This document shows positions 1 to 17,194 of a stretch of DNA of 17,828 nucleotides, one piece after another; the stretch's first letter is position 1, and each line of letters opens with the position of its first letter. The stretch lies in IMG/VR virus record IMGVR_UViG_2563366803_000003; one strand, 5' to 3'. The stretch is from a virus (lineage: Duplodnaviria; Heunggongvirae; Uroviricota; Caudoviricetes). The notes below the pieces were generated by a model, which saw nothing but the letters and a program-made list of their open reading frames with translations, was not told the DNA's origin and made no database searches. The translations under genes and the position numbers were made by a program.

Positions 1-504
1 TTATTGATAGTGTTTTATGTTCAGATAATGCCCGATGACTTTGTCATGCAGCTCCACCGATTTTGAAAACGACAGCGACTTCCGTCCCAGCCGTGCCAGG
101 TGCTGCCTCAGATTCAGGTTATGCCGCTCAATTCGCTGCGTATATCGCTTGCTGATTACGTGCAGCTTTCCCTTCAGGCGGGATTCATACAGCGGCCAGC
201 CATCCGTCATCCATATCACCACGTCAAAGGGTGACAGCAGGCTCATAAGACGCCCCAGCGTCGCCATAGTGCGTTCACCGAATACGTGCGCAACAACCGT
301 CTTCCGGAGCCTGTCATACGCGTAAAACAGCCAGCGCTGGCGCGATTTAGCCCCGACATAGCCCCACTGTTCGTCCATTTCCGCGCAGACGATGACGTCA
401 CTGCCCGGCTGTATGTGCGAGGTTACCGACTGCGGCCTGAGTTTTTTAAGTGACGTAAAATCGTGTTGAGGCCAACGCCCATAATGCGGGCTGTTGCCCG
501 GCAT
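1..504 (-). CDS. insB: IS1 InsB (167 aa) transposase catalytic part, expressed as InsAB' by -1 frameshift
   Basis: Translation [25 protein letters not shown]... matches IS1 InsB as recalled. Confidence 0.95.
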
Positions 505-698
505 CCAACGCCATTCATGGCCATATCAATGATTTTCTGGTGCGTACCGGGTTGAGAAGCGGTGTAAGTGAACTGCAGTTGCCATGTTTTACGGCAGTGA
601 GAGCAGAGATAGCGCTGATGTCCGGCGGTGCTTTTGCCGTTACGCACCACCCCGTCAGTAGCTGAACAGGAGGGACAGCTGATAGAAACAGAAGCCAC
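423..698 (-). CDS. insA: IS1 InsA (91 aa, Cys4 zinc-finger/HTH transposition regulator)
   Basis: Translation [22 protein letters not shown]... matches IS1 InsA as recalled; A6C slippery site (gttttttaa on + strand near 442-450) precedes insB. Confidence 0.95.
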
Positions 699-753
699 TG
701 GAGCACCTCAAAAACACCATCATACACTAAATCAGTAAGTTGGCAGCATCACC

Positions 754-1236
754 CAGATAACGTAATATGGTCACTTCACGATTAGATAGCACAGTGACCG
801 TTGAACTATTCGTACTACATTTATTGCTTTTTATATAGTTAAGCGTTTCGCTGGGAAAAAACGTGTATCCGGAGAGGATCATCTGAACGGCATGAAAAAT
901 ATCATTCTGATCATTGCATTTACTGACAAAACCGTTAGCACCAGCTTGTATCGCTCTGCCAGCATAAAAGCATTCTGATTTCGATGATAAAAATAACACT
1001 TTCACTGTGCTCTGGATTTGTTTGATCCTTTTCAGGAAGGTAAAACCGTCTGTTCCGGGCAAGTCTATATCCATAATGATTAAATCAACAGGACGGGTTC
1101 GGAGATAATCGATGGTTATGCGGTAATCATCCGTTTTCAGGACAATCTGCAATTCACTGTTTTTTTGCAACAGAACTTCAATAGACATTCTGATGATAGG
1201 ATGAGTATCCATAATGATCACCGACGTTGGTTTCAT
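754..1236 (-). pseudogene. fimZ: fimZ (LuxR-family response regulator of fimbrial genes), 3' end interrupted by IS1; C-terminal HTH domain missing
   Basis: ORF MKPTSVIIMDTHPIIRMSIEVLLQKNSELQIVLKTDDYRI... receiver domain; reading frame runs into the IS1 terminus at 753 and ends with IS1-encoded residues GDAANLLI; fimZ is the known neighbour of argU. Confidence 0.85.
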
Positions 1237-1419
1237 AGTTACCAGTCTCATAGGAGCGGACAATTTTCCGTTAGGGCGGTAAATTGTACTTTGATACATG
1301 AAAATACGGGTTTTCTTGATTCAGACGCGCAGCGGTGTGCGTTTGTTTGCCGCTATAGCGAAATAAATCAGAAAATCAGACGCGGTCGTTCACTTGTTCA
1401 GCAACCAGATCAAAAGCCA

Positions 1420-1447
1420 TTGACTCAGCAAGGGTTGACCGTATAAT
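1420..1447 (+). promoter_or_regulatory. Probable sigma70 promoter of argU: -35 TTGACT (1420-1425), 16-bp spacer, -10 TATAAT (1442-1447)
   Basis: Near-consensus hexamers about 30 nt upstream of the tRNA 5' end. Confidence 0.6.
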
Positions 1448-1478
1448 TCATGCGATTACACCGCATTGCGGTATCAAC

Positions 1479-1555
1479 GCGCCCTTAGCTCAGTTGGATA
1501 GAGCAACGACCTTCTAAGTCGTGGGCCGCAGGTTCGAATCCTGCAGGGCGCGCCA
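1479..1555 (+). tRNA. argU: tRNA-Arg (anticodon UCU), 77 nt, ends CCA
   Basis: Cloverleaf sequence GCGCCCTTAGCTCAGTTGGATAGAGCAACGACCTTCTAAGTCGTGGGCCGCAGGTTCGAATCCTGCAGGGCGCGCCA; anticodon loop CT-TCT-AA; known DLP12 attachment tRNA. Confidence 0.95.
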
Positions 1556-1570
1556 TTACAATTCAATCAG

Positions 1571-2734
1571 TTACGCCTTCTTTATATCCTCCATAATTCC
1601 AGAGTGGGACATATTTGGGACATTATCACCAAAAATGTCGTCTATTTTCCTCGCATGCTCTGTCAAATGATTAGGCGCAAGGTGAGCATACCTACGAACC
1701 ATTTCTATGGACTCCCATCCGCCCATTTCCTGAAGCACTGATAATGGGACGCCTGACTGAATCAGCCAGCTTGCCCAGGTGTGTCTGAGGTCATGGAAAC
1801 GGAAATCTTCAATTCCTGCACGACGACAAGCTGATAGCCATGATGTCTTGCTGTCGATGCGCATCTTCCTGACCGCAGGCGTTGATGTTCCATCTGCTCG
1901 CTTAGCCGCCTTGGTATGTACAAACACCCATTTGTGATGCTTGCCTATTTGATCACGCAACACTTTACAGGCGGTATCGTTCAGCGCCACACCAATGGCG
2001 CGGTTTGATTTGCTCTCTTCTGGATTCACCCAGGCAACTCGTCGCTGCATGTCGATTTGTTGCCATTCCAGATTTATGATGTTCGACTTTCTCAGACCAG
2101 TTGCCAGCGCAAACTTGACGACAGATTTCAGTGGTTCGGGGCACTCATCAATAAGGCGTTTTGCTTCCTCCTTTTCCAGCCATCTGACTCGCTTGTTTCT
2201 GACCGCTGGTATCTTGATGACAGGCGCTTTTTCCAGCCACTTCCAGTCGCGTTCTGCAGCACGGAGAATGGCCTTTATCATGGCAAGATGCTTTGCCTTT
2301 GTCTGAGTTGATACTGGCTTTGGTTCATAAACAGGCAGTTCTTTACCTTTCCTGATGGCGGCCTGAACTTTCTGTTTCCATATTTCTTTCGTCTTTCTGT
2401 TATGCATTCTGCTTACAGCAGAGTAAATCTTTGCCTCCGAGATATCTTTAAGCCTTATACCCTCAAAATGTTCAAGCCAGAACTCAATCCGGCTTTTATC
2501 TGAATCGAGAGATTTTTTATCAGCTTTTTCCTCAAGCCATCTTAGGCAGGCCTCTTCAAAAGTGACATCAGGTAAATCCCCTAGCTTTTCTACTCGCCAG
2601 AGTTCTGCTTTTCGCTTGTCGTGCAACTCCTGAGCTTGCCGCTTGTCCTTTGTGCCAAGAGATTCCTTAATTCGTTTCCCGCCCGGGAGCGAATACGAGG
2701 CATACCATATTTCATTTCTGCGGAAGAGTGACAT
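1571..2734 (-). CDS. intD: Prophage tyrosine integrase (DLP12 IntD-like, 387 aa)
   Basis: C-terminal catalytic region with [10 protein letters not shown]... and ...VRRYAHL motifs (R-H-R-Y family); positioned 16 nt from the 3' end of argU. Confidence 0.93.
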
Positions 2735-2961
2735 TTTCTTTCCTCTGTTATGCCATCACCCGCGCTCACCTGGACAGTATGCAGCGGAGACTGAAGCGCC
2801 GCAATGCAGGCTTGCCGTGTTGTGAGGTAAGGAGATTTTGGCTTGGTTGGATCTTTACGTGTTGCCTGTAGGCGGCCTGTTCGTATCCAGTTGGTGGCGG
2901 TTGGTCTGGATATCTTAAGAAACTGACAGGCCTCATCGAGTGTGAGGCTGTATGATTCCAT
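2590..2961 (-). CDS. xis: Excisionase-like HTH protein (Xis), about 123 aa, overlapping the 5' end of int in another frame
   Basis: Start ATG at 2961 preceded by GAGGT SD; N-terminal [29 protein letters not shown] typical of excisionase/AlpA-type proteins; position upstream of int. Confidence 0.6.
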
Positions 2962-3211
2962 GGTTACCTCTGCTTTTTGAACGCATGTCACGTAACTTCT
3001 TAATGTGTTCTGCCGTTTCGATCTCTTCTGCTATCCGATCTGCATCAGCTTTATTCACAGGTTCAAAGTCATGATTAAAGCGGAACATGCTGGCGATACA
3101 TGTTCTGCCTTTTCGGATGTAGTGAACTTTGTTGTGGGTAGAACGCAGGATTTTGCAGGGAGTGCCGTGGTGGTCGACGTACCAGGTGTTAGGAAAAATG
3201 ATTCTGAACAT
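2933..3211 (-). CDS. Small Cys/His-containing phage protein (92 aa), possibly lambda Ea8.5-like by size and position next to xis
   Basis: ORF with GAGGTG SD 6 nt upstream of ATG at 3211; contains HH..C...H..H...C pattern; lambda Ea8.5 is 93 aa and lies next to xis. Confidence 0.4.
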   Translation of the reverse strand: MFRIIFPNTWYVDHHGTPCKILRSTHNKVHYIRKGRTCIASMFRFNHDFEPVNKADADRIAEEIETAEHIKKLRDMRSKSRGNHGIIQPHTR

Positions 3212-3258
3212 TTTTACACCTCAGTTGGACGATGTTGAAATTTGCTGCTTTGAGGCCA

Positions 3259-3477
3259 TCACAGTCCCCATTGTTTGTTCTTAAGTTCGATCTCCTCCTG
3301 GCAACTTGCACAAGTCCGACAACCCTGAACAGCCAGGCGTCTTCGCTCATCTATCGGATCGCCACACTCACAACAATGAGTTGCGGATACAGTCTGGTAG
3401 TTCTGACGACGCATTTTTATTGCTGTATTGCGCTGTAATTCTTCGATTTCTGATGCTGAATCAATGATGTCTGCCAT
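3259..3477 (-). CDS. TraR/DksA-family C4 zinc-finger protein (72 aa)
   Basis: CxxC-x17-CxxC signature (CCECGDPIDERRRLAVQGCRTCASC) typical of phage TraR/DksA-like proteins. Confidence 0.65.
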   Translation of the reverse strand: MADIIDSASEIEELQRNTAIKMRRQNYQTVSATHCCECGDPIDERRRLAVQGCRTCASCQEEIELKNKQWGL

Positions 3478-3529
3478 CTTCCATTAATCCCTGAATTGTT
3501 GGTTAATACGCTTGAGGATGAATGCGAAT

Positions 3530-3556
3530 AATAAAAAAGGAGCCTGTAGCTCCCTG
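3530..3556 (-). terminator. Possible rho-independent terminator (short GC stem ggagc/gctcc followed by T6 on minus strand)
   Basis: Hairpin 3539-3553 with A-tract 3533-3538 on + strand (= T-tract on minus), 20 nt downstream of the 3576 stop. Confidence 0.35.
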
Positions 3557-3575
3557 ATGATTTTGCTTTTCATGT

Positions 3576-3857
3576 TCATCGCTCCTTAAAGACGCCGTTT
3601 AACATGCCGATCGCCAGACTTAAATGAGTCGGTGTGAATCCCATCAGCGTTACCGTTTCGCGGTGCTTCTTCAGTACGCTACGGCAAATGTCATCGACGT
3701 TTTTATCCGGAAACTGCTGTCTGGCTTTTTTGATTTCAGAGTTAGCCTGACGGGCAATGCTGCGAAGGGCGTTTTCTTGCTGAGGTGTCATTGAACAAGT
3801 CCCATGTCGGCAAGCATAAGCACACAGAATATGAAGCCCGCTGCCAGAAAAATGCAT
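3576..3857 (-). CDS. Hypothetical lambdoid b-region protein (93 aa; alternative start at 3791 gives 72 aa)
   Basis: ORF in the minus-strand early-left gene string between xis and exo; no recognisable motif. Confidence 0.4.
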   Translation of the reverse strand: MHFSGSGLHILCAYACRHGTCSMTPQQENALRSIARQANSEIKKARQQFPDKNVDDICRSVLKKHRETVTLMGFTPTHLSLAIGMLNGVFKER

Positions 3858-3867
3858 TCAGTGGTTG

Positions 3868-4059
3868 TCATACCTGGTCTCTCTCATCTGCTTCTGCTTT
3901 CGCCACCATCATTTCCAGCTTTTGTGAAAAGGATGCGGCTAACGTATGAAATTCTTCGTCTGTTTCTACTGGTATTGGCACAAACCTGACTCCAATTTGA
4001 GCGAGGCTATGTGCCATCTCGATACTCGTTCTTAACTCAACGGGAGATGCTTTGTGCAT
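3868..4059 (-). CDS. Small lambdoid early protein, 63 aa (lambda orf63-like by size and position)
   Basis: GGGAG SD upstream of ATG at 4059; same orientation and tight packing with exo-proximal genes. Confidence 0.45.
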   Translation of the reverse strand: MHKASPVELRTSIEMAHSLAQIGVRFVPIPVETDEEFHTLAASFSQKLEMMVAKAEADERDQV

Positions 4060-4220
4060 ACAGCTCCCCGTTTATTATTTATCTCCTCAGCCAGCCGCTG
4101 TGCTTTCAGTGGATTTCTGATAACAGAAAGGCCGGGAAATACCCAGCCTCGCTTTGTAATGGAGTAGACGAAAGTGATCGCGCCTACCCGGATATTATCG
4201 TGAGGATGCGTCATCGCCAT
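4032..4220 (-). CDS. Small lambdoid early protein, 62 aa (lambda orf60a-like by position immediately upstream of exo)
   Basis: ORF overlapping exo start region; GGGGAG upstream of ATG at 4220. Confidence 0.45.
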
Positions 4221-4891
4221 TGCTCCCCAAATACAAAACCAATTTCAGCCAGTGCCTCGTCCATTTTTTCGATGAACTCCGGCACCATCTCGTCAAAACT
4301 CGCCATGTACTTTTCATTCCGCTCAATCACGACATAATGCAGGCCTTCACGCTTCATGCGCGGGTCATAGTTGGCAAAGTACCAGGCATCTTTTCGCGTC
4401 ACCCACATGCTGTACTGCACCTGGGCCATGTAAGCCGATTTTATTGCCTCGAAACCACCGAGCCGGAATTTCATGAAATCCCGGGAGGTAAACGGGCATT
4501 TCAGTTCAAGGCCGTTGCCGTCACTGCATAAACCATCGGGAGAGCAGGCGGTGCGCATACTTTCGTCGCGATAGATGATCGGGGATTCAGCAATATTCAC
4601 GCCGGAAGTGAATTCAAACAGGGTTCTGGCGTCGTTCTCGTACTGTTTTCCCCAGGCCAGCGCCTTAGCATTAACTTCCGGAGCCACACCGGTGCAAACC
4701 TCAGCCAGCAGGGTGTGGAAGTAGGACATTTTCATGTCAGGCCACTTCTTTCCTGAGCGGGGCTTTGCTATCACGTTGTGAACTTCTGAAGCGGTGATGA
4801 CGCCGAGCCGTAATTTGTGCCATGCATCATCCCCCTGTTCGACAGCTCTCACGTCGATCCCGGTACGCTGCAGGATAATGTCCGGTATCAT
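4211..4891 (-). CDS. exo: Lambda-type 5'-3' exonuclease Exo (Red-alpha), 226 aa
   Basis: Translation [65 protein letters not shown]... is near-identical to lambda Exo as recalled; same length. Confidence 0.95.
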
Positions 4892-5673
4892 GCTGCCACC
4901 TTCTGCTCAGTGGCTTTCTGTTTCAGGAATCCAAGAGCTTTCACTGCTTCGGCCTGTGTCATTTCTGACGATGCGCGAATGTCGCGGCGAAATATCTGGG
5001 AACAGAGCGGCAATAAGTCGTCATCCCATGTTTTATCCAGGGCGATCAGCAGAGTGTTAATCTCCTGCATGGTTTCATCGTTAACCGGAGTGATGTCGCG
5101 TTCTGGCTGACGTTCTGCAGTGTATGCAGTATTTTCGACAATGCGCTCGGCTTCATCCTTGTCATAGATACCAGCAAATCCGAAGGCCAGACGGGCACAC
5201 TGAATCATTGTTTTATGCCGTAACATCCGTTTGGGATGCGACTGCCACGGCCCCGTGATTTCTCTGCCTTCGCGGGTTTTGAATGGTTCGCGGCGGCATT
5301 CATCCATCCATTCGGTAACGCAGATCGGATGATTACGGTCCTTGCGGTAAATCCGGCATGTACAGGATTCATTGTCCTGCTCAAAGTCCATGCCATCAAA
5401 CTGCTGGTTTTCATTGATGATGCGGGACCAGCCATCAACGCCCACCACCGGAACAATGCCGTTCTGCTTATCAGGGAAGGCGTAAATTTCTTTCGTCCAC
5501 GGATTAAGGCCGTACTGGTTGGCGACGATCAACAATGCGATGAACTGCGCATCGCTGGCATCACCTTTAAATGCCGTCTGGCGAAGAGTGGTGATCAGTT
5601 CCTGTGGGTCGACAGAATCCATGCCGACACGTTCAGCCAGCTTCCCTGCCAGCGTTGCGAGTGCTGTACTCAT
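4888..5673 (-). CDS. bet: Lambda-type single-strand annealing protein Bet (Red-beta), 261 aa
   Basis: Translation [66 protein letters not shown]... matches lambda Bet; ATGA overlap with exo as in lambda. Confidence 0.95.
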
Positions 5674-5678
5674 CCGTT

Positions 5679-5975
5679 TTATACCTCTGAATCAATATCA
5701 ACCTGGTGGTGAGCAATGGTTTCAACCATGTACCGGATGTGTTCTGCCATGCGCTCCTGAAACTCAACATCGTCATCAAACGCACGGGTAATGGCTTTTT
5801 TGCTGGCCCCGCAGCGTTGCAAATGATCGATGCAGAGTGATTCAAACAGGTGCTGTGGAAGACCTTTTTCCATGTCGTCTGCCAGTTCTGACTCTTTCTC
5901 TTCACGGGCGATCTGCTGGTAGTGACGTGCCCAGCTCAGACCCTCAAGACGATCCTGAATGTAATAAGCGTTCAT
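5679..5975 (-). CDS. gam: Lambda Gam (RecBCD inhibitor), 98-aa GamS-length form
   Basis: Translation [56 protein letters not shown]... matches lambda Gam. Confidence 0.93.
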
Positions 5976-6050
5976 GGCTGAACTCCTGAAAATGGCTGTG
6001 AAAATATCGCCCGCGAAATGCCAGGCTGATTAGGAAAACAGGAAAGGGGA

Positions 6051-6257
6051 TTAGTGATTCAGGCCATTACCGCGTCCGTCGAAAAAAACTTCCACGAGCA
6101 AATCACGGGTATAAGTGCGCTCGATGCCGCGATGCAGATATAGCCGTCCGCGTAAATTAGCTGATGCAGTCCAGGTACCATCTTTGTGTTTGACCAGCAT
6201 TCCTGGCATGACCGCACCTCGATTAACGGTCTGCGTTCCGTAATGTTGATGAACCAT
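6051..6257 (-). CDS. Small early-left protein (68 aa from ATG at 6257 with AGGAG SD), possibly Kil-like host division inhibitor by position next to gam; in-frame upstream extension to 6461 is Arg-rich
   Basis: Strong SD (AGGAGTTTTT-ATG) at the internal start; first ORF downstream of the predicted pL; function assigned by synteny only. Confidence 0.4.
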
Positions 6258-6529
6258 AAAAACTCCTGCCCGTAAGCTGGGCTGCTGAACATATAGAGAC
6301 TTCTGCGCGTATTCAGGCGGTGGATGGCCGCCGGTTGTCATAACTAAGCCGCCTCGTTGAAGCGACTGAGGTATGAGGTGTTGAGTTGATTTCAGCTGGT
6401 CACACCGACGTTCACGCGTCCGTTTCACCCCTCGCACTCCCCGGAGCCTGCCGAAATTCAAGCTGCGGATCTAAGCGGTCATCGCAACGGTGAATCAGGT
6501 GGTTGCCGTATCGTTGTGTTGTTGCGACA

Positions 6530-6600
6530 TGGTGATAATAGCTATTGCTATTGGTGGTATCAATACTTATTGCTATTGATTGATGTGTTTTGATATTAAC
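6530..6600 (-). promoter_or_regulatory. Predicted pL/oL: minus-strand -35 TTGATA (+ coords 6558-6563) and -10 TATTAT (6535-6540) with 17-bp spacer, overlapped by repeated GCTATTG operator-like motifs
   Basis: Hexamers and spacing read directly; motif TTGCTATTG (6545-6553, 6570-6578) is shared with the cI-cro intergenic region. Confidence 0.4.
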
Positions 6601-6712
6601 TGTTTGATAGCAAAAAGAATTAATTTTGTGACTTGCATCGCATAGCGATAACTGAAGGGAGGTTGTGGTGGTTTTTCGAACGGTTTGTGTGATGAGGGGA
6701 GGGGACAAAAGA

Positions 6713-6745
6713 AAACCCGGCACGGTGGCCGGGACGTTTTATTTC
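6713..6745. terminator. Bidirectional rho-independent terminator (stem cccggc...gccggg, flanked by T-runs on both strands); likely end of the cI operon (tImm-like)
   Basis: aaaacccggcacggtggccgggacgttttatttc immediately after the stop of the 6739-7251 gene. Confidence 0.65.
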
Positions 6746-7251
6746 AAAGAAAAATTATGACTAGCGTATCTTGGAAGAAATTCATATAGTGTTAATGTCT
6801 TAACGCCGTGAGAAGCAGCAGCATCCGGGATCATTATTCTTTTTTTAGGTTTGCCACCGGATGGTTTCTCATGGGTAATAATAGTATATCCATGTGTCAT
6901 CGCATGGGCTATTAAAAAAGCATCTGCTTTTTCATGGCTTGCAAAATCAAACTTTGCCTTTTCGGTAACATCTAATTTAGTTGACCAATTTATTAACTTT
7001 GCATAATTTTCTATTGAACTATGCTCATCTTCGAAGAATGATGATGGTAACTCTTCTTTAATCCATTTACACAATGGATCATCTTTTGCACATAGTTCTT
7101 TTTTTACAGCATTAATGCTATAAATCAGACCATTCATGTGTAAAGCGAGAAGAAAATCCCAAAATATTTTGCAATAATTGAAGTTATATGCAAAGTTTTT
7201 TGCCTCTATGAAGACATTACTATCAATTAAGAATTTTCCATTATGAATCAT
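6739..7251 (-). CDS. DUF4411-type PIN-like putative nuclease (170 aa); candidate effector of a two-gene defense/toxin module
   Basis: Size, N-terminal FLIDSNVFI strand with conserved Asp and later acidic residues fit a PIN-like fold; ATGA start/stop overlap with upstream metallopeptidase gene; AT-rich composition. Confidence 0.6.
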   Translation of the reverse strand: MIHNGKFLIDSNVFIEAKNFAYNFNYCKIFWDFLLALHMNGLIYSINAVKKELCAKDDPLCKWIKEELPSSFFEDEHSSIENYAKLINWSTKLDVTEKAKFDFASHEKADAFLIAHAMTHGYTIITHEKPSGGKPKKRIMIPDAAASHGVKTLTLYEFLPRYASHNFSLK

Positions 7252-8387
7252 AGAGATTCTCGTTTTTTATAAAATTCAACAACTGTATCTGCTTTTACAT
7301 TTAGCAGTACGCCTGCTTCCCTTAATGGTAATTGTTGAGACATTGCTTTGGAAATTATTATATTCGTAAGTTTTGGACTGTTACGAACAGGTAATGTGTT
7401 AAAGAAAGAACCACCATTAGATTCTTTTTTGGGCTTATTGTAAGCTTGATCTTTAATTATCTCCAAAGTGTTTCTTTCTATCAAATCTAATTGTAACGCT
7501 TTGATTGCACAAGCGAAATCACTAACCTTAAATAACTTAGAAACCTCTTTTACTCGATAATAATTATTATCGCTGGATGCATTAAGCCAGAAAGATTTGA
7601 AGAGATTATCAGGCATTAAGATTTCAGCAGCAACTTTATTACAAAAAGATTCTATGTTTTTTTCTGTGTCCCACCCAGAGACTCCATCGACTCCAAGCCA
7701 AAGATGAGCCACCTCATGAAATAATGTAAATACCTGCGCAGATAACGCGTCCGAGCTATTTACAAAAATGATCGGAGCAACGCTATCAGATATACAGAAA
7801 CCACGAAACTCTCGCGTGTCAAGTTTTCTTTTATTATTATTACCCACAACACCATTCTTGAAAACTAATACGCCAGTGTCTTCTATTAGTTTTGCCACTT
7901 TAGAAAAATAGCTCTCAAAAGTGACATTTTTTATCTCTTTTTGTATATCAAAATGTATTGTGTTTGCTATGTCTGTAGCAACAACCTTATAATTTAATTT
8001 TCTATTAAATTTAAATTTACCAATAAAATCGAGTGGATCATCATTACCATTTTCTCTTAAATAGTCTTTGTACCACTCAAGTTTATATTCTATATCATAG
8101 TAAACATCAAAAAAATCTTTTCCTAACTCACGGCTATTTATAGCTTGCCTTAAGTCAGGGATCTTGGGTTTGGCTGGAGTTGGTGGCGTTTCAAGAAATA
8201 AAAAACCGAAAGGGATTCCTCCAATTTTTGCCAGTTTTTCTGCTGCGGATTTACTTACCACTCCGTTAAGAAATTTATTAATCTTTTTGGGCATGACTTG
8301 GTCAGCAAGAGTTTCGATAGAAACTCCTTGAGAATTTGCTATCCAATCAATCATCTTCCTAGACAATTGAAATTCAACCGCTGCCAT
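7248..8387 (-). CDS. HTH + ImmA/IrrE-family (COG2856/M78-like) zinc metallopeptidase, 379 aa
   Basis: HExxH motif in FTLFHEVAHLWLG; N-terminal HTH-like segment (IDWIANSQGVSIETLADQV); AGGTGA SD upstream of ATG at 8387; translationally coupled to DUF4411 gene. Confidence 0.7.
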   Translation of the reverse strand: MAAVEFQLSRKMIDWIANSQGVSIETLADQVMPKKINKFLNGVVSKSAAEKLAKIGGIPFGFLFLETPPTPAKPKIPDLRQAINSRELGKDFFDVYYDIEYKLEWYKDYLRENGNDDPLDFIGKFKFNRKLNYKVVATDIANTIHFDIQKEIKNVTFESYFSKVAKLIEDTGVLVFKNGVVGNNNKRKLDTREFRGFCISDSVAPIIFVNSSDALSAQVFTLFHEVAHLWLGVDGVSGWDTEKNIESFCNKVAAEILMPDNLFKSFWLNASSDNNYYRVKEVSKLFKVSDFACAIKALQLDLIERNTLEIIKDQAYNKPKKESNGGSFFNTLPVRNSPKLTNIIISKAMSQQLPLREAGVLLNVKADTVVEFYKKRESL

Positions 8388-8516
8388 GTTATCACCTAGT
8401 TAAAAAAAACTATTATTCAACAATTATTGTTGTGCACCTGATAGCTAACGTCAAGCCTAATTTATTGCCTTACTACAGTAAGCTGAAAAGCGAAGTGCAT
8501 AATTTTGTTCTGATTT

Positions 8517-9209
8517 CTACCCATGCTTTCTATATGTCTGCGGCATGCTCCCGATGACTTTCCCGAAGATGAACACGCGGTTCATCTCGTCTTTCTCGAT
8601 CGGGTCCCACGGTGAGTAGCTCTTGTTATCAGAGATAACCAGCAGCTTATCCTTCATCATTTGCAGGCGCTTTACATGGGCGGTGTCGTCATACAGAAAC
8701 GCATAGATACCATCACCGTCGAAAGATTTAACAGTGATATCAACGAACAGAAGATCACCTGGTTCGATCGTTCCTGACATGCTGTCACCGCGTACGTTAA
8801 TGATGCGGATATTTTCTGCCTTCCTGCCATCGAACATGTGACGAGCATCGTCAAACGAGTACTCAACCGAGCGTAGAACTTCTACAAACTCACGGTTGAT
8901 GACTCCCGGCCCGGCACTCACTTCTATATCAAGAACGTCAATCTTGAAGTATTTGGGATGGTTGGCAGTAGGCTTCCCTAATTGTTGACCGTCATTTCTC
9001 ATCGGGCCTATGCCTGATGAGAGCCACTCTGTTCGAACACCCAATGCATTAGCTATTTCAACAATTTTTGTTGAGCCGCGCGCGTTGCCGCTTGTCAGTC
9101 TCCAGATTGTGGGTTGAGCTACCCCAGACGCCTTTGCAAGAGCGCCTTGAGACATTCCAGATTGTTCCATCGCTAGGTTTAAGCGATCAGCAAGAGTTTC
9201 TTTTTTCAT
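8517..9209 (-). CDS. cI: cI-type prophage repressor (N-terminal XRE HTH + C-terminal S24/LexA-like autopeptidase), about 230 aa, leaderless
   Basis: HTH segment LADRLNLAMEQSGMSQGALAKASGVAQPTIWRL; S24 peptidase signature around GDSMSGTIEPGDLLFVD with downstream Lys (HVKRL); ATG at 9209 lies 7 nt after a -10 hexamer. Confidence 0.85.
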   Translation of the reverse strand: MKKETLADRLNLAMEQSGMSQGALAKASGVAQPTIWRLTSGNARGSTKIVEIANALGVRTEWLSSGIGPMRNDGQQLGKPTANHPKYFKIDVLDIEVSAGPGVINREFVEVLRSVEYSFDDARHMFDGRKAENIRIINVRGDSMSGTIEPGDLLFVDITVKSFDGDGIYAFLYDDTAHVKRLQMMKDKLLVISDNKSYSPWDPIEKDEMNRVFIFGKVIGSMPQTYRKHG

Positions 9210-9319
9210 AAGTTTTAATTTATACGCTTGCGTATTGATGGTCAAAACACGTTTTGCTATTGTTATGATTAATACGCATTGCTATTATTTATTCATTGCA
9301 ATACCAATAGGAATTGATA
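9210..9319. promoter_or_regulatory. Divergent immunity control region. Predicted pRM on minus strand (-35 TTGACC at + 9240-9245, -10 TAAATT at 9217-9222, leaderless cI) and pR on plus strand (-35 TTGTTA 9260-9265, -10 TATTAT 9283-9288); operator-like repeats TTGCTATT and palindromes
   Basis: Hexamers and 17-bp spacings read directly; motif shared with 6540-6580. Confidence 0.5.
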
Positions 9320-9547
9320 ATGACAAATCAAACCATTCAACTCGCAATCAGTATTACAGGTAGTCAAAAACGACTGGCAGATCTATGCGGTGTAGCCCAA
9401 CCCACTGTTTGGCGTTGGCTACACGGTGGCGGAATTGATGCCCGCTATGTAATGAAAATTGTCTCAGCCACTGGTGGAAAGATTAAACCAGCAGATATTC
9501 GTCCCGACCTCGCACCATTGTTTAACGCGAGTAATTCTGCCGCCTAA
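9320..9547 (+). CDS. cro: Cro-like HTH regulator of the YdaS family (about 75 aa)
   Basis: HTH segment GSQKRLADLCGVAQPTVWRWL; AGGAA SD 6 nt upstream of ATG 9320; divergent from cI. Confidence 0.7.
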   Translation: MTNQTIQLAISITGSQKRLADLCGVAQPTVWRWLHGGGIDARYVMKIVSATGGKIKPADIRPDLAPLFNASNSAA

Positions 9548-9571
9548 ACTGCGGCGTTAACTGATAAGGCA

Positions 9572-10117
9572 ATGACTATGCAACCACTTACATACCAACA
9601 GACTAGCGGATTTAGCCCGACTGTGGTGATAAATCGTTCTCAAACAAAACAAGCTCCAGGCCACGAAAAAATCCGTGATGCCGTCCGCGCCTGGTCGGCT
9701 GCAGATAATCAGGATGTTGTTGCCGCACTCATTGTGAATGAGTATCGGGAGCAGGGCGGCGGCACCATCGATTTCCCTGATGATGTCAGCCGTGCACGCC
9801 AGAAGCTGTTCCGCTTCCTCGATAACAAATTCGATTCTGAAAAATACCGAAATAACGTGCGTGAACTGACCCCGGCAATTCTGGCGGTACTACCGCTGGA
9901 ATATCGCGGTTACCTGGTTGAGCAGGATAGCTTTATGGCTAGGTTGGCTGAAATGGAAAAGGAACTCAGTGAGGCAAAACAGGCTGTCATTCTCAACGCA
10001 CCACGCCACCAGAAACTGAAGGAGATGAGTGAAGGCATTGTGTCGATGTTTCGAGTGGACCCGGATCTGGCTGGTCCATTGATGGCGATGGTCACCACCA
10101 TGCTGGGGGCAATATGA
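9572..10117 (+). CDS. YdaT-family protein (181 aa), occupying the cII position
   Basis: Recalled resemblance (..EYREQGGG.., ..LTPAILAVLP..) to Rac YdaT-type proteins; always paired with YdaS-type cro; position between cro and O. Confidence 0.5.
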   Translation: MTMQPLTYQQTSGFSPTVVINRSQTKQAPGHEKIRDAVRAWSAADNQDVVAALIVNEYREQGGGTIDFPDDVSRARQKLFRFLDNKFDSEKYRNNVRELTPAILAVLPLEYRGYLVEQDSFMARLAEMEKELSEAKQAVILNAPRHQKLKEMSEGIVSMFRVDPDLAGPLMAMVTTMLGAI

Positions 10118-10203
10118 CAGGTTCAAAAATGGCGAAAGTCGGTCTGCGGGAACAGAACCGACTTTCAGGTGCAAATCGTAACACACTCATTGCGGGAGGA
10201 ATT

Positions 10204-11133
10204 ATGGCAAACACTGCTGAGATATTCAATTTTCCAGTGCCGGATGCGGCACAAAAGGAGCCGCGCGTGGCAGATCTCGATGATGGTTATACGCGCATTG
10301 CAAATGAGTTGCTGGAAGCTGTGATGCTGGCCGGATTAACACAGCACCAGCTTCTGGTCTTCCTGGCTGTCATGCGCAAAACATATGGCTTTAATAAAAA
10401 ACTGGATTGGGTGAGCAACGAGCAACTTTCCGAGTTGACCGGGATATTGCCGCACAAGTGTTCTGCTGCAAAAAGTGTTCTGGTAAAGCGTGGGATTTTT
10501 ATTCAGAGCGGGCGGAATATCGGCATCAATAATGTGGTCAGTGAATGGTCAACATTACCCGAATCGGGTAAGAAAAATAAAGTTTACCTGAAAGAGGTAA
10601 ATTTACCTGAATCAGGTAAGAAAAGTTTACCTAAATCAGGTAAAGGCGTTTACCCGAATCAGGTAAACACAAAAGACAAACTAACAAAAGACAATATAAA
10701 ACCTTTATCGTCCGAGAATTCTGGCGAATCCTCTGACCAGCCAGAAAACGATCTTCCTGTGGTGAAACCGGATGCTGCAATTCAGAGCGGCAGCAAGTGG
10801 GGGACAGCAGAAGACCTGACCGCCGCAGAGTGGATGTTTGACATGGTGAAGACCATCGCGCCATCAGCCAGAAAACCGAATTTTGCAGGGTGGGCTAACG
10901 ATATCCGCCTGATGCGTGAACGTGATGGACGTAACCACCGCGACATGTGCGTGCTGTTCCGCTGGGCATGCCAGGACAACTTCTGGTCCGGTAACGTGCT
11001 GAGTCCGGCTAAACTCCGCGACAAGTGGACCCAGCTCGAAATCAACCGTAACAAGCAACAGGCTGGCGTGACAGCCAGAAAACCAAAACTCGACCTGACA
11101 AACACTGACTGGATTTACGGGGTGGATTTATGA
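10204..11133 (+). CDS. O: Lambda O-type replication initiator (about 309 aa from ATG 10204 with GGGAGG SD)
   Basis: N-terminus MANTAEIFNFP...VADLDDGYTRIANELLEAV...LLVFLAVMRKTYGFNK resembles lambda O N-terminal domain; internal iteron array. Confidence 0.85.
   Translation: MANTAEIFNFPVPDAAQKEPRVADLDDGYTRIANELLEAVMLAGLTQHQLLVFLAVMRKTYGFNKKLDWVSNEQLSELTGILPHKCSAAKSVLVKRGIFIQSGRNIGINNVVSEWSTLPESGKKNKVYLKEVNLPESGKKSLPKSGKGVYPNQVNTKDKLTKDNIKPLSSENSGESSDQPENDLPVVKPDAAIQSGSKWGTAEDLTAAEWMFDMVKTIAPSARKPNFAGWANDIRLMRERDGRNHRDMCVLFRWACQDNFWSGNVLSPAKLRDKWTQLEINRNKQQAGVTARKPKLDLTNTDWIYGVDL
10555..10710 (+). repeat. Phage origin of replication: five 17-bp palindromic iterons TTACC(C/T)GAATC(A/G)GGTAA (10555-10571, 10584-10600, 10603-10619, 10627-10643, 10649-10665) followed by an A-rich tract
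   Basis: Direct repeats read in sequence inside the O gene, as in ori-lambda. Confidence 0.8.
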
Positions 11134-11831
11134 AAAACATCGCCGCACAGATGGTTAACTTTGACCGTGAGCAGATGCGTCGGATCGCCAACAACATGCC
11201 GGAACAGTACGACGAAAAGCCGCAGGTACAGCAGGTAGCGCAGATCATCAACGGTGTGTTCAGCCAGTTACTGGCAACTTTCCCGGCGAGCCTGGCTAAC
11301 CGTGACCAGAATGAACTGAACGAAATCCGCCGCCAGTGGGTTCTGGCTTTCCGGGAAAACGGGATCACCACAATGGAACAGGTTAACGCTGGAATGCGCG
11401 TAGCCCGTCGGCAGAATCGACCATTCCTGCCATCACCCGGGCAGTTTGTCGCCTGGTGCCGGGAAGAAGCATCTGTTAACGCCGGGCTGCCAAACGTCAG
11501 CGAGCTGGTTGATATGGTTTACGAGTATTGCCGGAAGCGTGGCCTGTATCCGGATGCAGAGTCTTATCCGTGGAAATCGAACGCGCATTACTGGTTGGTT
11601 ACCAACTTGTACCAGAACATGCGGGCCAATGCGCTGACTGACGCGGAATTACGGCGCAAGGCTGCCGATGAACTGACCTGTATGACAGCGCGAATTAACC
11701 GTGGTGAGACGATACCTGAACCAGTAAAACAACTTCCTGTTATGGGCGGTAGACCTCTAAATCGTGCACAGGCTCTGGCGAAGATCGCAGAAATTAAAGC
11801 TAAGTTCGGACTGAAAGGAGCAATTGTATGA
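11130..11831 (+). CDS. P: Lambda P-type replication protein (DnaB helicase loader), 233 aa
   Basis: Translation MKNIAAQMVNFDREQMRRIANNMPEQYDEKPQVQQVAQIINGVFSQLLATFPASLANRDQNELNEIRRQW... matches lambda P; ATGA overlap with O. Confidence 0.95.
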   Translation: MKNIAAQMVNFDREQMRRIANNMPEQYDEKPQVQQVAQIINGVFSQLLATFPASLANRDQNELNEIRRQWVLAFRENGITTMEQVNAGMRVARRQNRPFLPSPGQFVAWCREEASVNAGLPNVSELVDMVYEYCRKRGLYPDAESYPWKSNAHYWLVTNLYQNMRANALTDAELRRKAADELTCMTARINRGETIPEPVKQLPVMGGRPLNRAQALAKIAEIKAKFGLKGAIV

Positions 11832-12130
11832 CGGGCAAAGAGGCAATTATTCATTACCTGGGGACGCATAAGAGCTTCTGTGCACAGGACGTTGCCGCGG
11901 TAACAGGCGCAACCGTAACCAGCATAAATCAGGCTGCGGCTAAAATGGCGCGGGCAGGAATCCTGGTCGTTGATGGTAAGGTCTGGCGAACGGTGTATTA
12001 CCGGTTCGCTACCAGAGAAGAACGGGAAGGAAAGGTGAGCACGAATCTGATTTTTAAGGAGTGTCGCCAGAGTGCCGCGATGAAACGGGTATTGAGGGTA
12101 TATAAAAGAACATCAATGGGAACACAATGA
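11828..12130 (+). CDS. ren: Ren (Rex exclusion-escape protein), 100 aa
   Basis: Translation MTGKEAIIHYLGTH.SFCA.DVAA.TGATVTSINQAAAKMARAG... matches lambda Ren; ATGA overlap with P. Confidence 0.9.
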   Translation: MTGKEAIIHYLGTHKSFCAQDVAAVTGATVTSINQAAAKMARAGILVVDGKVWRTVYYRFATREEREGKVSTNLIFKECRQSAAMKRVLRVYKRTSMGTQ

Positions 12131-12197
12131 TGAAACAGGTGAGTTGAGTTCAAACTGTAGTACAATTCTCTCCAGTTTGAACAGGAAAGAATATGCT

Positions 12198-12530
12198 ATG
12201 AACCCTTATATTTATCTTGGTGGTGCAATACTTGCAGAGGTCATTGGTACAACCTTAATGAAGTTTTCAGAAGGTTTTACACGGTTATGGCCATCTGTTG
12301 GTACAATTATTTGTTATTGTGCATCATTCTGGTTATTAGCTCAGACGCTGGCTTATATTCCTACAGGGATTGCTTATGCTATCTGGTCAGGAGTCGGTAT
12401 TGTCCTGATTAGTTTACTGTCATGGGGATTTTTCGGCCAACGGCTGGACCTGCCAGCCATTATAGGCATGATGTTGATTTGTGCCGGTGTGTTGGTTATT
12501 AATTTATTGTCACGAAGCACACCACATTAA
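12198..12530 (+). CDS. emrE: EmrE small multidrug-resistance efflux transporter, 110 aa (prophage moron)
   Basis: Translation MNPYIYLGGAILAEVIGTTLMKFSEGFTRLWPSVGTIICYCASFWLLAQTLAYIPTGIAYAIWSGVGIVLISLLSWGFFGQRLDLPAIIGMMLICAGVL... matches EmrE; AGGAAAG SD. Confidence 0.95.
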   Translation: MNPYIYLGGAILAEVIGTTLMKFSEGFTRLWPSVGTIICYCASFWLLAQTLAYIPTGIAYAIWSGVGIVLISLLSWGFFGQRLDLPAIIGMMLICAGVLVINLLSRSTPH

Positions 12531-12550
12531 AATAATTTGTTTCTAAACGA

Positions 12551-12590
12551 CTAAAATATGGAGGCTCTTATATTTATATGAGCCTCGTTT
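12551..12590 (+). terminator. Rho-independent terminator downstream of emrE (stem gaggctc...gagcctc followed by T-rich tract)
   Basis: Hairpin 12551-12576, T-run 12577-12590. Confidence 0.7.
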
Positions 12591-12784
12591 TATGCTTTTT
12601 GTTAATGTCTTTATTTTTTATGTATTCTTTTGTGCTTTCAAGATTATGGCGTAAGAAAATTGCAATACGATTATTGTTGTATATTCAAGATAATGTGACC
12701 TTAATTGTCTTTTTAAATAAAAATTAAACAAAAATTATATCCCACCACTAAGGTTTATAAAAGCATACGTTAGCAGGTGTCACC

Positions 12785-13624
12785 ATGAAAAAAGCCATAG
12801 CATATATGCGATTTTCATCACCAGGTCAGATGTCTGGTGACTCATTAAACCGACAGAGAAGACTTATTGCTGAATGGTTAAAGGTAAATAGTGATTATTA
12901 TCTTGATACCATAACATATGAAGATTTAGGATTAAGTGCATTCAAAGGAAAGCATGCACAATCAGGAGCTTTTTCGGAATTTTTAGATGCTATAGAGCAT
13001 GGTTATATATTGCCAGGAACTACATTGTTAGTTGAAAGTCTGGACAGACTTTCAAGAGAAAAAGTCGGTGAAGCGATTGAACGTCTGAAATTGATTTTGA
13101 ATCACGGTATTGATGTTATAACTCTTTGCGACAATACAGTCTATAATATTGACTCTTTGAATGAGCCATATTCATTAATAAAAGCCATACTTATAGCACA
13201 AAGGGCAAATGAAGAAAGCGAGATAAAGTCAAGTCGGGTTAAATTATCATGGAAGAAAAAACGGCAGGATGCAATGGAATCAGGTACGATTATGACGGCG
13301 TCTTGTCCGAGATGGCTCTCCTTAGATGACAAAAGAACGGCTTTTGTTCCAGACCCCGACAGGGTGAAAACTATTGAGCTAATTTTTAAACTCAGGATGG
13401 AAAGGCGCTCATTGAATGCAATAGCCAAGTATTTAAATGATCATGCTGTAAAGAATTTCTCAGGAAAAGAAAGTGCATGGGGACCTTCTGTAATTGAAAA
13501 ATTATTAGCGAATAAAGCTCTGATAGGTATATGCGTACCTTCATATCGTGCAAGAGGGAAAGGGATAAGTGAAATCGCTGGCTATTATCCCAGAGTTATA
13601 TCAGATGATTTGTTTTACGCTGTA
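12785..13624 (+). pseudogene. ybcK: ybcK-like serine recombinase, truncated after about 280 codons by IS1
   Basis: N-terminal resolvase-type catalytic domain (AIAYMRFSSPGQMSGDSLNRQRR... with catalytic Ser), reading frame runs into IS1 left terminus at 13625. Confidence 0.8.
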
Positions 13625-13639
13625 GGTAATGACTCCAAC

Positions 13640-14143
13640 TTATTGATAGTGTTTTATGTTCAGATAATGCCCGATGACTTTGTCATGCAGCTCCACCGAT
13701 TTTGAAAACGACAGCGACTTCCGTCCCAGCCGTGCCAGGTGCTGCCTCAGATTCAGGTTATGCCGCTCAATTCGCTGCGTATATCGCTTGCTGATTACGT
13801 GCAGCTTTCCCTTCAGGCGGGATTCATACAGCGGCCAGCCATCCGTCATCCATATCACCACGTCAAAGGGTGACAGCAGGCTCATAAGACGCCCCAGCGT
13901 CGCCATAGTGCGTTCACCGAATACGTGCGCAACAACCGTCTTCCGGAGACTGTCATACGCGTAAAACAGCCAGCGCTGGCGCGATTTAGCCCCGACATAG
14001 CCCCACTGTTCGTCCATTTCCGCGCAGACGATGACGTCACTGCCCGGCTGTATGCGCGAGGTTACCGACTGCGGCCTGAGTTTTTTAAGTGACGTAAAAT
14101 CGTGTTGAGGCCAACGCCCATAATGCGGGCTGTTGCCCGGCAT
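13640..14143 (-). CDS. insB: IS1 InsB (the longer 194-aa ORF in the track is the out-of-frame upstream extension used for InsAB' frameshifting)
   Basis: Same frame and sequence as copy A InsB, with one amino-acid difference (H vs R). Confidence 0.93.
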
Positions 14144-14337
14144 CCAACGCCATTCATGGCCATATCTATGATTTTCTGGTGCGTACCGGGTTGAGAAGCG
14201 GTGTAAGTGAACTGCAGTTGCCATGTTTTACGGCAGTGAGAGCAGAGATAGCGCTGATGTCCGGCGGTGCTTTTGCCGTTACGCACCACCCCGTCAGTAG
14301 CTGAACAGGAGGGACAGCTGATAGAAACAGAAGCCAC
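14062..14337 (-). CDS. insA: IS1 InsA
   Basis: Identical protein to copy A InsA. Confidence 0.95.
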
Positions 14338-14392
14338 TGGAGCACCTCAAAAACACCATCATACACTAAATCAGTAAGTTGGCAGCATCACC

Positions 14393-14512
14393 CTCACTAA
14401 AGCAGGTTTCTGGCTGGATGATGCTCAGGTCGTTGATTACCGCGTTGTGAAGATGCCTGTTACCAAAGGTGGGAGGCTGGAACTGACCATCACCGAAATG
14501 GGGAATGAATGA
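14393..14512 (+). pseudogene. rusA: 3' fragment (last 39 codons) of rusA Holliday-junction resolvase, fused directly to the IS1 terminus
   Basis: Translation [39 protein letters not shown] equals the RusA C-terminus as recalled; no start codon or N-terminal part. Confidence 0.8.
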
Positions 14513-14649
14513 TGTTTGAGTTTAATATAGCAGAACTTCTTCGCCACCGCTGGGGGCGTCTGCGCTTATATCGTTTCCCCGGTTCTGTTTTGACCGATTA
14601 CCGAATACTGAAGAATTACGCCAAAACCCTGACAGGAGCAGGAGTATGA
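14509..14649 (+). CDS. ylcG: YlcG small protein (46 aa), start overlaps rusA stop (ATGA)
   Basis: Translation [46 protein letters not shown] matches DLP12 YlcG as recalled. Confidence 0.7.
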
Positions 14650-14734
14650 AGTCAGAGATAACAATCAACTAATACTGTTTTATTGATTTTTGCTTGTAAT
14701 TGGCGTTCTGGTCTGATTTTTGTGGAGTAAGTTG

Positions 14735-15118
14735 ATGCGTGATATTCAGATGGTTCTTGAGCGTTGGGGAGCGTGGGCGGCTAATAATCATGAAGATGTG
14801 ACCTGGTCGTCCATTGCCGCCGGTTTTAAGGGATTAATTCCTTCAAAAGTAAAATCTCGCCCGCAATGTTGTGACGATGACGCGATGATCATTTGCGGGT
14901 GCATGGCCCGTCTGAAAAAGAACAACAGCGATTTGCACGATTTATTAGTAGATTATTATGTAGTCGGTATGACATTCATGTCACTGGCAGGTAAGCATTG
15001 CTGCTCTGATGGTTATATCGGGAAAAGGTTACAAAAGGCTGAGGGCATAATTGAAGGGATGTTAATGGCATTAGATATCCGGTTAGAGATGGATATCGTT
15101 GTTAATAACTCTAATTAA
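14735..15118 (+). CDS. quuD: Late-gene antiterminator Q (QuuD-like), 127 aa
   Basis: Translation [24 protein letters not shown]...[16 protein letters not shown]... with Cys-rich zinc-binding motif; GGAG SD 7 nt upstream. Confidence 0.85.
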
Positions 15119-15143
15119 TACGCCAATTATTTACTAAAAGTTA

Positions 15144-15298
15144 TTAAAAATGGGGCGTTGAAACGCCCCCAAAAATAAAGGGTAATATATAACAGAAGGT
15201 TTGTATAGTTAGAAGCAAGGTTGTGCTTCTAAAGGAAGTGGCTTGAGGGAGCCACTTATATGTTGGGGAGGCAAAGCCTCCCACAACATATCTTTTAG
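15144..15298. promoter_or_regulatory. Q-downstream region with three hairpins (15151-15170, 15238-15256, 15257-15290). Likely contains pR'/qut and a tR'-like terminator on + strand (15257-15298) and a convergent terminator for the porin gene on minus strand (15144-15170)
   Basis: Stem-loops read directly; the 15151-15170 hairpin is followed by a T-run on the minus strand, the 15257-15290 hairpin by CTTTT on the plus strand. Confidence 0.4.
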
Positions 15299-15306
15299 TA
15301 ATCAAA

Positions 15307-16978: not shown

Positions 16979-17194
16979 ATGAAATCCATGGATAAGTTAA
17001 CAACGGGTGTCGCCTATGGCACCTCAGCAGGTAGTGCCGGTTACTGGTTTTTACAGCTGCTCGATAAAGTCACGCCCTCACAGTGGGCAGCAATAGGTGT
17101 GCTGGGTAGCCTGGTATTTGGCCTGCTGACGTACCTGACAAACCTTTATTTCAAGATTAAAGAAGATAAGCGCAAGGCTGCGAGAGGTGAATAA
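16979..17194 (+). CDS. essD: Class II holin / pinholin of the S21 family (71 aa) with dual-start motif MKSMDK
   Basis: Translation [71 protein letters not shown]; two TM segments; stop overlaps endolysin start (TAATG). Confidence 0.85.

Follow-up and report, generated by a model that had tools for sequence, protein, structure and literature searches.

In Tn9 and the r-determinant of R100, IS1 copies in direct repeat can mobilise or amplify the DNA that they flank. The classical deletions of the gal region, which start at an IS1 end, are IS1-mediated adjacent deletions. DLP12 of Escherichia coli K-12 is a defective lambdoid prophage attached at argU that has lost its Red genes, kil, the immunity region, and the O and P genes with the replication origin. 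In the E. coli long-term evolution experiment, recombination between insertion sequences is the cause of most large rearrangements and the main deletion route, and a DLP12-like locus was lost in 10 of the 12 lines (PMC4173774).

The window, which is the whole 17,828-nt stretch of DNA analysed here, contains no N and is 100% identical to scaffold KE137162.1 of the scaffold-level draft genome E. coli GCA_000408585.1 across both overlapping loci. The DNA between its two IS1 copies and both outside flanks are colinear with the intact loci L001 (strain STEC1588) and L013; the left flank, which lies beyond the window, was taken from GCA_000408585.1 and is folD-sfmA intergenic DNA. A Shigella origin, which the density of IS1 had suggested, is rejected on account of the full identity to an E. 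coli assembly. The prophage region aligns colinearly, at 96-98% identity, with the prophage annotated in STEC1588 (intD, emrE, ybcK, rusA, quuD, ompC/nmpC, essD, rrrD), and it has an integrase gene directly downstream of argU, lambdoid early genes and the DLP12 markers in order, by which DLP12-family prophages are recognized. The region is very probably the native folD-fimZ-argU chromosome with a DLP12-family lambdoid prophage at argU, which insertion sequences are eroding and in which the two IS1 copies are separate, each with an adjacent loss. The prophage shares with DLP12 of K-12 the argU attachment, the order intD, emrE, ybcK, rusA, ylcG, quuD, nmpC-type porin, essD and rrrD, and the erosion by insertion sequences. 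Unlike DLP12, it keeps the Red genes, kil, the immunity region, and O and P with the origin, which is of the lambdoid type: five palindromic iterons (TTACCYGAAWSRGGTAA) occupy 10555-10667, and an A-rich stretch (10669-10700) comes after them. In comparison with DLP12 it has lost ybcN, ninE, ybcO and the 5' part of rusA, and its rrrD is interrupted by an IS3-family element, which we take to be IS2 by its terminal sequence.

Table. Coordinates of the features of the window, in order of position.
Feature	Position	Strand	Remarks
Left IS1	1..753	-	window edge cuts off the first 15 nt of the IRR end; Pfam InsA and DDE_Tnp_IS1 on the identical locus L024
fimZ'	754..1236	-	truncated at about codon 161 of 210; Response_reg only; compared with intact fimZ
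argU, tRNA-Arg(TCT)	1479..1555	+	tRNA call
intD-type tyrosine integrase	1571..2734	-	adjoins argU; Phage_integrase 5e-47; ortholog annotated intD in STEC1588
xis-like HTH_17 ORF	2658..2961	-	overlaps the int start; partial Pfam match; STEC1588 ortholog flagged incomplete by PGAP
Red-type module	4211..5975	-	exo 4211-4891 (YqaJ), bet 4888-5673 (RecT), gam 5679-5975 (Gam)
kil, KilR family	6051..6257	-	PF27398; same stretch as L008 3267-3473
DUF4411 and ImmA/IrrE M78 metallopeptidase	6739..8387	-	DUF4411 6739-7251, metallopeptidase 7248-8387; pair between kil and repressor
Immunity region	8517..10117		S24/HTH repressor 8517-9209 (-), YdaS-type Cro-like 9320-9547 (+), YdaT 9578-10117 (+)
Replication genes	10114..11831	+	O 10114-11133, P 11130-11831
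ren-like ORF and emrE	11828..12530	+	ren-like ORF 11828-12130; emrE 12198-12530, SMR transporter, Multi_Drug_Res 3e-35
ybcK'	12785..13624	+	first 840 nt of a 1,527-nt serine recombinase gene, cut by IS1
Right IS1	13625..14392	-	complete, 768 bp; IRR end abuts ybcK, IRL end abuts the inside of rusA
rusA'	14393..14512	+	about the last 120 nt
Remaining prophage, native order	14509..17599	mixed	ylcG, quuD 14735-15118, nmpC/ompC-type porin 15307-16389 (-), essD holin 16979-17194, rrrD' lysozyme from 17194
IS3-family element, left end	17600..17828	+	truncates rrrD to 151 aa (165 in the intact form)

A repeat search of the window picked up the two IS1 copies as direct repeats that are 13,639 nt apart. 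In the pairwise alignment, which the first-pass annotation had proposed, positions 1-753 match 13640-14392 with three mismatches, an identity of 99.6% over 753 nt that excludes chance by a wide margin. The transposase lies on the minus strand in both copies, so they are direct repeats, and the interval between them (754-13624, 12,871 bp) carries the truncated fimZ, argU, int, the xis-like ORF, exo, bet and gam, kil, the immunity region, O and P with the origin, emrE and the truncated ybcK. Alignment and feature calls thus agree with the first-pass annotation in placing two same-orientation IS1 copies, at 1-753 and 13625-14392, around argU and the prophage early region. That annotation had left room for the first copy being in another context, and examination of its left flank places both copies on the one chromosomal scaffold. 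In the source assembly the left copy measures 768 bp and has the same three differences from the right copy, and no others. The IS1 ends, GGTAATGACTCCAACTTATTGAT and GGTGATGCTGCCAACTTACTGAT, are imperfect terminal inverted repeats of about 23 bp. The insA and insB frames are open in both copies, the A6C motif of the -1 frameshift is at its canonical position 304, and the Pfam models Zn_ribbon_InsA, HTH_Tnp_IS1 and DDE_Tnp_IS1 match loci identical to these copies.

Each IS1 sits on a deletion junction that has no target-site duplication, which is the main fact absent from the first-pass annotation. The left IS1 replaces about 6,068 bp of the intact locus L013, from sfmA to sfmF together with the 3' end of fimZ, and the right IS1 replaces positions 17159-20577 of STEC1588 (L001), which are 3,419 bp with the 3' half of ybcK, nin-region genes and the 5' part of rusA. 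Duplications of 8-9 bp were sought at both copies and none is present, neither between ATTTATTTC and CAGATAACG at the left copy nor between TACGCTGTA and CTCACTAAA at the right copy, an absence that the adjacent deletions would explain. Simple IS1 insertions in relatives do carry a duplication, which is TACGCTGTA in E. coli PSS-13 and GCAACTTTA in L007. In PSS-13, IS1 has entered ybcK at the position and in the orientation of the right copy, with a duplication of 9 bp and the rest of ybcK after it, which is the state that would be expected before the deletion. This insertion lies in DNA that differs from the window by about 2%, and it may have struck a hotspot independently instead of being ancestral to the right copy. 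Strain TUM9757 has a folD-IS1-fimZ' allele with a different left endpoint and a fimZ junction that is 1 bp away, which may likewise be an independent event. Adjacent deletions are expected to start at one IS end and to have endpoints that vary.

We infer that IS1 insertion into fimZ was followed by the loss of 6.07 kb on the IRR side of the left copy, and insertion into ybcK by the loss of 3.42 kb on the IRL side of the right copy; the intervening 12.9 kb would have stayed in its original place throughout. Each deletion would most likely be an IS1-mediated adjacent deletion, which is an intramolecular transposition from one IS end that would keep the other junction intact and leave no target-site duplication. 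As in the classical adjacent deletions, an IS1 still occupies the junction without its target-site duplication, the far endpoints vary and one original junction appears to be kept, the ybcK side agreeing exactly with that of PSS-13 and the fimZ side with that of TUM9757 within 1 bp. In contrast to the classical cases, the mechanism is read here from end states in natural isolates, and a route by recombination between two IS1 copies could also apply. The long-term evolution experiment is similar in that its DLP12-like locus was reshaped by recombination at IS copies, with prophage remnants making up more than their share of the deletions; in the laboratory lines, however, whole prophage remnants were lost, whereas here only sub-segments are gone and the argU part is kept (PMC4173774). 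This is ordinary IS1-driven genome decay, and the locus is a clean, fully mapped case of IS1 eroding a fimbrial operon (sfm) and a resident prophage, with little significance beyond careful annotation.

The exact junction between fimZ' and IS1 is found in at least 24 contigs, among them contigs with the order envY-argU-fimZ'-IS1 from strains without a prophage at argU, one of which is present in at least 20 samples. Because the left junction is also present in strains without the argU prophage, the left and right IS1 copies are judged to be separate events. The first-pass annotation, which had suggested comparing strains with and without each IS1, had called the two copies independent insertions on account of three or more nucleotide differences; the separateness is borne out by this junction, and the argument from the differences is weak. 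There are exactly three of them, at 310/13949 (C/A), 416/14055 (T/C) and 528/14167 (A/T) in the left and right copies respectively, the first being where it had been placed and the others one position beyond the 415/14054 and 527/14166 given before. The orthologous right-hand IS1 of the sister genome L007 has T/G/G at these positions, and two of the three supposedly diagnostic differences would post-date the insertion or be due to gene conversion or assembly noise. Between the two assemblies, orthologous IS1 copies show 1 difference in 768 positions and 3 in 589, against only about 0.03-0.08% in the unique DNA beside them. Since the orthologous copies vary as much as the two copies of the window, the three differences are weak evidence for a separate origin and no decisive proof of it, and the age of IS copies is poorly gauged from how much they differ.

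All four IS1 junctions are independently present in other records: a 2.6-Mb contig of GCA_964051545.1, which has inherited the double-IS1 structure whole and unchanged, a 13,118-bp contig of GCA_037639355.1, which extends from the edge of one IS1 to that of the other and is consistent with this structure, and several contigs from metagenomes or read archives. The IS1-bracketed argU part is retained in at least three assemblies. Exact-pattern scans of species-representative genomes and JGI metagenome contigs gave neither the fimZ'-IS1 junction nor the left junction that a simple insertion with a duplication would predict, and they are uninformative, since the lineage is absent from these sets and IS1 breaks assemblies.

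From sequence alone, a one-ended adjacent deletion looks the same as recombination between two IS1 copies of which one has since been lost, and both deletions could come from homologous recombination between IS1 pairs, with four insertions and two recombinations. Such a route is the main one for deletions in the long-term evolution experiment (PMC4173774), and IS1-rich strains offer suitable pairs, with two IS1 copies around sfmA in strain 63-2 and IS1 pairs inside DLP12-type prophages (L018). It needs twice as many events as the adjacent deletions, however, and no complete genome has IS1 at the folD-sfmA endpoint of the window or at the rusA endpoint, the junction of the latter having given no single-piece match, so that we consider it unlikely. 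A repeat-assembly artefact of the draft genome, as the source of the arrangement or of the three differences, is much less probable still: the source is a scaffold-level assembly in which single bases within the IS1 copies might stem from mosaic assembly, and the IS1 orthologs of the sister assembly do differ more than the unique DNA around them, but the recurrence of all four junctions in independent records and a window free of N argue against it. The IS1 structure is real, and only the three differences are open to doubt.

The 14.4-kb segment from one IS1 to the other could also be a working composite transposon of the Tn9 type, by which argU, emrE and the early region of the prophage would be moved, and the first-pass annotation had described it as a potential composite-transposon-like unit. 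It resembles Tn9 and the IS1-flanked r-determinant of R100/NR1 in having two full-length direct IS1 copies around a passenger with a resistance-type gene (emrE); both copies keep their ends, including those on the outer sides of the passenger, and in each of them insA and insB are open and the A6C motif is present. An IS1 with the 338A allele private to the left copy is present in immA of the sister genome as a fresh insertion with a 9-bp duplication, which indicates that this IS1 type is active. Unlike in Tn9 and the r-determinant, the passenger is native chromosome and resident prophage in their original order, colinear with the native folD/fimZ/argU/prophage locus on both sides and including a probably indispensable tRNA gene, and the unit lacks a flanking duplication (its outer 9-bp neighbours are ATTTATTTC at the left and CTCACTAAA at the right), a second location and a plasmid copy. 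No second context of the bracketed unit turned up in 5,426 complete E. coli genomes, and no mobilised copy on any real plasmid in 72,556 plasmid records; a single record, which is chromosome-sized (4.9 Mb), covers 80% or more of the segment, the weaker matches being either over-sized as well or small, prophage-like and limited to the phage genes, as most of the matches listed are. Nothing in these collections suggests that the 12.9-kb segment ever moved as a unit, and a working transposon is highly improbable, so this description of the segment is not upheld.

The direct IS1 repeats, which are of 768 bp, could in principle recombine via RecA, and the interval between them would then be deleted or tandemly amplified. 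The first-pass annotation had named both outcomes, and the repeats are formally a substrate for homologous recombination; deletion of argU, however, would probably be selected against. The argU tRNA reads AGA and AGG, argW reads only AGG, and the loss of both is lethal (PMC4652775). Since a deletion between the IS1 copies removes the AGA reader, it would probably be counter-selected unless another tRNA-Arg(UCU) gene exists. A tRNA gene probably needed by the cell may explain why the bracketed part of the prophage survives while its neighbours vanish. It is conceivable, at very long odds, that recombination between the copies excises the interval with one IS1 as a 13.6-kb circle that carries the origin iterons, O, P, argU and emrE, as a plasmid like lambda-dv, or makes a tandemly amplifiable argU/emrE cassette. 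Such a circle would be indispensable to the cell, because the AGA-reading tRNA gene would be on it. Excision or amplification, of which nothing here gives an indication, would if ever shown be a natural route to a higher dosage of argU and emrE.

The flanks of argU match the homology arms of a published argU knockout with one mismatch, which is in the left arm (PMC4652775). The truncated fimZ keeps its receiver domain and has lost the GerE/LuxR DNA-binding domain, and its open frame enters IS1 and reaches a stop at 727; the longest ORF across the fimZ'-IS1 junction has 190 aa, or 169 aa from the native FimZ start.

Two loci of scaffold KE137162.1 (E. coli assembly GCA_000408585.1), L008 and L024, match window 2785-17828 and 1-11236, respectively, and span the whole window at 100% identity, so both IS1 copies belong to one replicon. 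L024 reaches 9.3 kb further left than the window, where the left IS1 is followed by folD-sfmA intergenic DNA and then by folD, ybcJ, ybcI and cysS. The window contains one single long direct repeat, with an offset of 13,639, and the two IS1 copies are direct repeats because the transposase frames of both lie on the minus strand. Alignment of window 1-753 with 13640-14392 gives three mismatches, at 310/13949, 416/14055 and 528/14167. At its full length of 768 bp in L024, the left copy still differs from the right one at exactly three positions (left/right alleles T/A, A/G and G/T at canonical positions 226, 338 and 444). The first-pass annotation had described two non-identical copies in the same orientation, an observation that repeat detection and alignment confirm together with the number of differences and the position 310/13949; its positions 415/14054 and 527/14166 are each one base too low, and its interpretation is only partly supported.

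Features of the window, in order
Feature	Coordinates	Strand	Remarks
Left IS1	1-753	minus	incomplete only through the window edge
fimZ' (truncated)			start of interval; only receiver domain retained
argU, tRNA-Arg(TCT)	1479-1555		
intD-type integrase			after argU
xis-like HTH_17 ORF	2658-2961	minus	overlaps int by ~77 nt
exo, bet, gam, then kil			after xis-like ORF
DUF4411 and ImmA/IrrE M78 peptidase pair	6739-8387	minus	between kil and repressor
S24 repressor, YdaS-like gene, YdaT gene			after DUF4411-ImmA/IrrE pair
O and P			after YdaT
ren-like ORF	11828-12130		after O and P; intact, 100 aa
emrE			after ren-like ORF
ybcK' (truncated)			first 840 nt of ybcK; last gene before right IS1
Right IS1	13625-14392	minus	complete, 768 bp; expected terminal repeats, insA and insB open, A6C frameshift motif
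IS3-family element, left end	17600-17828		inserted in lysozyme gene rrrD, cut to 151 aa

The interval between the copies (754-13624; 12,871 bp) was checked with ARAGORN, Pfam and the annotated relative E. coli STEC1588 (96-98% identical), and the gene inventory proposed for it earlier proved correct. The argU flanks agree with the homology arms of a published argU knockout, except for a single mismatch in the left one. The xis-like ORF covers only the first 32 of the 51 positions of Pfam HTH_17, and its STEC1588 ortholog is flagged incomplete by PGAP. The M78 peptidase has weak PADLOC matches (capP, 1e-14, and RmrA-like) and the DUF4411 protein has no PADLOC match; the pair, possibly a module for defence or regulation carried by the prophage, is broken by IS1 in GCA_964051545.1 and GCA_028653355.1. 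In STEC1588 the ren-like gene is split by a 1.3-kb insert with an outer-membrane-protein gene (L001 14130-15460), which is absent from the window (11883-11916).

Comparison with related loci shows that both IS1 copies are deletion scars. The left IS1 stands in place of about 6,068 bp of the intact folD-sfm-fimZ locus, sfmA through sfmF and approximately the last 150 nt of fimZ being missing. The right IS1 stands in place of 3,419 bp of STEC1588, comprising the 3' half of ybcK, a P22AR-domain gene, ybcN, ninE, ybcO and two-thirds of rusA from its 5' end. No target-site duplication is found at the left copy (flanks ATTTATTTC and CAGATAACG) or at the right copy (flanks TACGCTGTA and CTCACTAAA), and the outermost 9-mers beyond the pair are unlike each other, leaving the unit without a flanking duplication. 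Beyond the right IS1 the prophage continues in native order, with rusA', ylcG, quuD, porin, essD and rrrD'. Given the scars, the missing duplications and this order, the bracketed DNA has stayed in its native place all along. The double-IS1 feature is ordinary IS1-driven genome decay at a native locus, in which the elements (IS1 and a DLP12-family prophage) and the processes (IS1 adjacent deletion or IS-IS recombination, with prophage decay) are all textbook.

Adjacent deletion by IS1 classically keeps one junction, loses the duplication and leaves a variable endpoint on the other side. E. coli PSS-13 carries a simple IS1 insertion at the identical ybcK site (equivalent to window 13616-13624; L002 16057-16842), in the same orientation, flanked by a clean 9-bp duplication, TACGCTGTA, and followed by the rest of ybcK, in a different prophage that sits at ybhC and not at argU. 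This would be the state expected of the right IS1 before a deletion from its IRL side. In E. coli TUM9757, which has folD-IS1-fimZ', the fimZ junction is 1 bp away and the left endpoint is different. The pattern in these two strains fits adjacent deletion from one IS1 end, the likely route. The deletions could also stem from recombination with another IS1 that has since disappeared, but none of the complete E. coli genomes searched showed an IS1 at the endpoint in rusA. Since the PSS-13 flanks show about 2% divergence from the window, its ybcK::IS1 may have arisen independently at a hotspot; the shared site is either such a hotspot or an old insertion spread by prophage-prophage recombination.

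In different E. coli strains, the 3' end of fimZ or the sfm operon has been hit by at least five distinct IS1 alleles (window 727-1236; L003, L033, L034, L035), whose common orientation may only mirror the search design. They are those of the window, TUM9757, 14EC047 (simple insertion ~15 bp away), 63-2 (sfmA with an IS1 on either side) and EC2641 (folD-IS1-intact fimZ), which suggests an IS1 hotspot and that the sfm fimbrial operon has been lost repeatedly.

The two copies are independent, as had been proposed from their three differences, which are weak evidence; the conclusion holds on other grounds. The exact fimZ'-IS1 junction, tracked through its 169-aa FimZ' product, is present in at least 24 contigs, several of which read envY-argU-fimZ'-IS1 with argU lacking the prophage, one of them in at least 20 samples. 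The left event therefore occurs without prophage and without the right copy. In the right-hand ortholog of the sister genome GCA_964051545.1 the three sites read T/G/G, the common alleles, and 3 of 589 positions differ from the window's right copy; for the left ortholog it is 1 of 768. These values are several-fold higher than in the unique flanking DNA (only ~0.03-0.08%; L007, L023). IS1 sequences thus change more quickly than the DNA around them, an excess that points to gene conversion among copies or to mosaic assembly. Allele 338A, private to the left copy, also occurs in a fresh immA::IS1 of the sister genome, with duplication GCAACTTTA, which suggests activity of this IS1 type.

The structure resembles Tn9-type units in its directly repeated IS1 copies, its intact ends and its transposase frames, which are open, as the proposal of a composite-transposon-like unit supposed; unlike these, it has no flanking duplication and its passenger is native to the locus. 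The three junctions inside the window occur together in none of 5,426 complete E. coli genomes. Among plasmid records, one alone spans 80% or more of the segment, and it is chromosome-sized (4.9 Mb); the records that matched less well are over-sized too, or are small and prophage-like and share phage genes only. Every testable sign of movement is absent. The double structure is inherited unchanged in GCA_964051545.1, and a 13,118-bp contig of GCA_037639355.1, running from IS1 edge to IS1 edge, is consistent with it.

Large rearrangements in the long-term evolution experiment came mainly from IS recombination, and 10 of the 12 lines lost the DLP12-like locus (PMC4173774). The argU tRNA reads AGA and AGG, argW reads AGG only, and removing the two together is lethal (PMC4652775). 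IS1-IS1 recombination, also suggested earlier, is possible in principle, but deletion should be counter-selected because it removes argU, provided that no other tRNA-Arg(UCU) gene is present; amplification is possible and none was observed. Within the O gene (10555-10700), five palindromic iterons, TTACCYGAAWSRGGTAA, at 10555-10667 precede an A-rich tract, and together they form a complete lambdoid replication origin. Since the interval holds a complete replication module (iterons, A-rich tract, O and P), recombination between the IS1 repeats could release it as a lambda-dv-like circle with argU and emrE on board, a reading that is very improbable.

The IS3-family element at the right end is IS2, judging by its terminal sequence TAGACTGGCCCCCTGAATCTCC, and the sister genome has another IS2 copy within its right-hand IS1 (L007).
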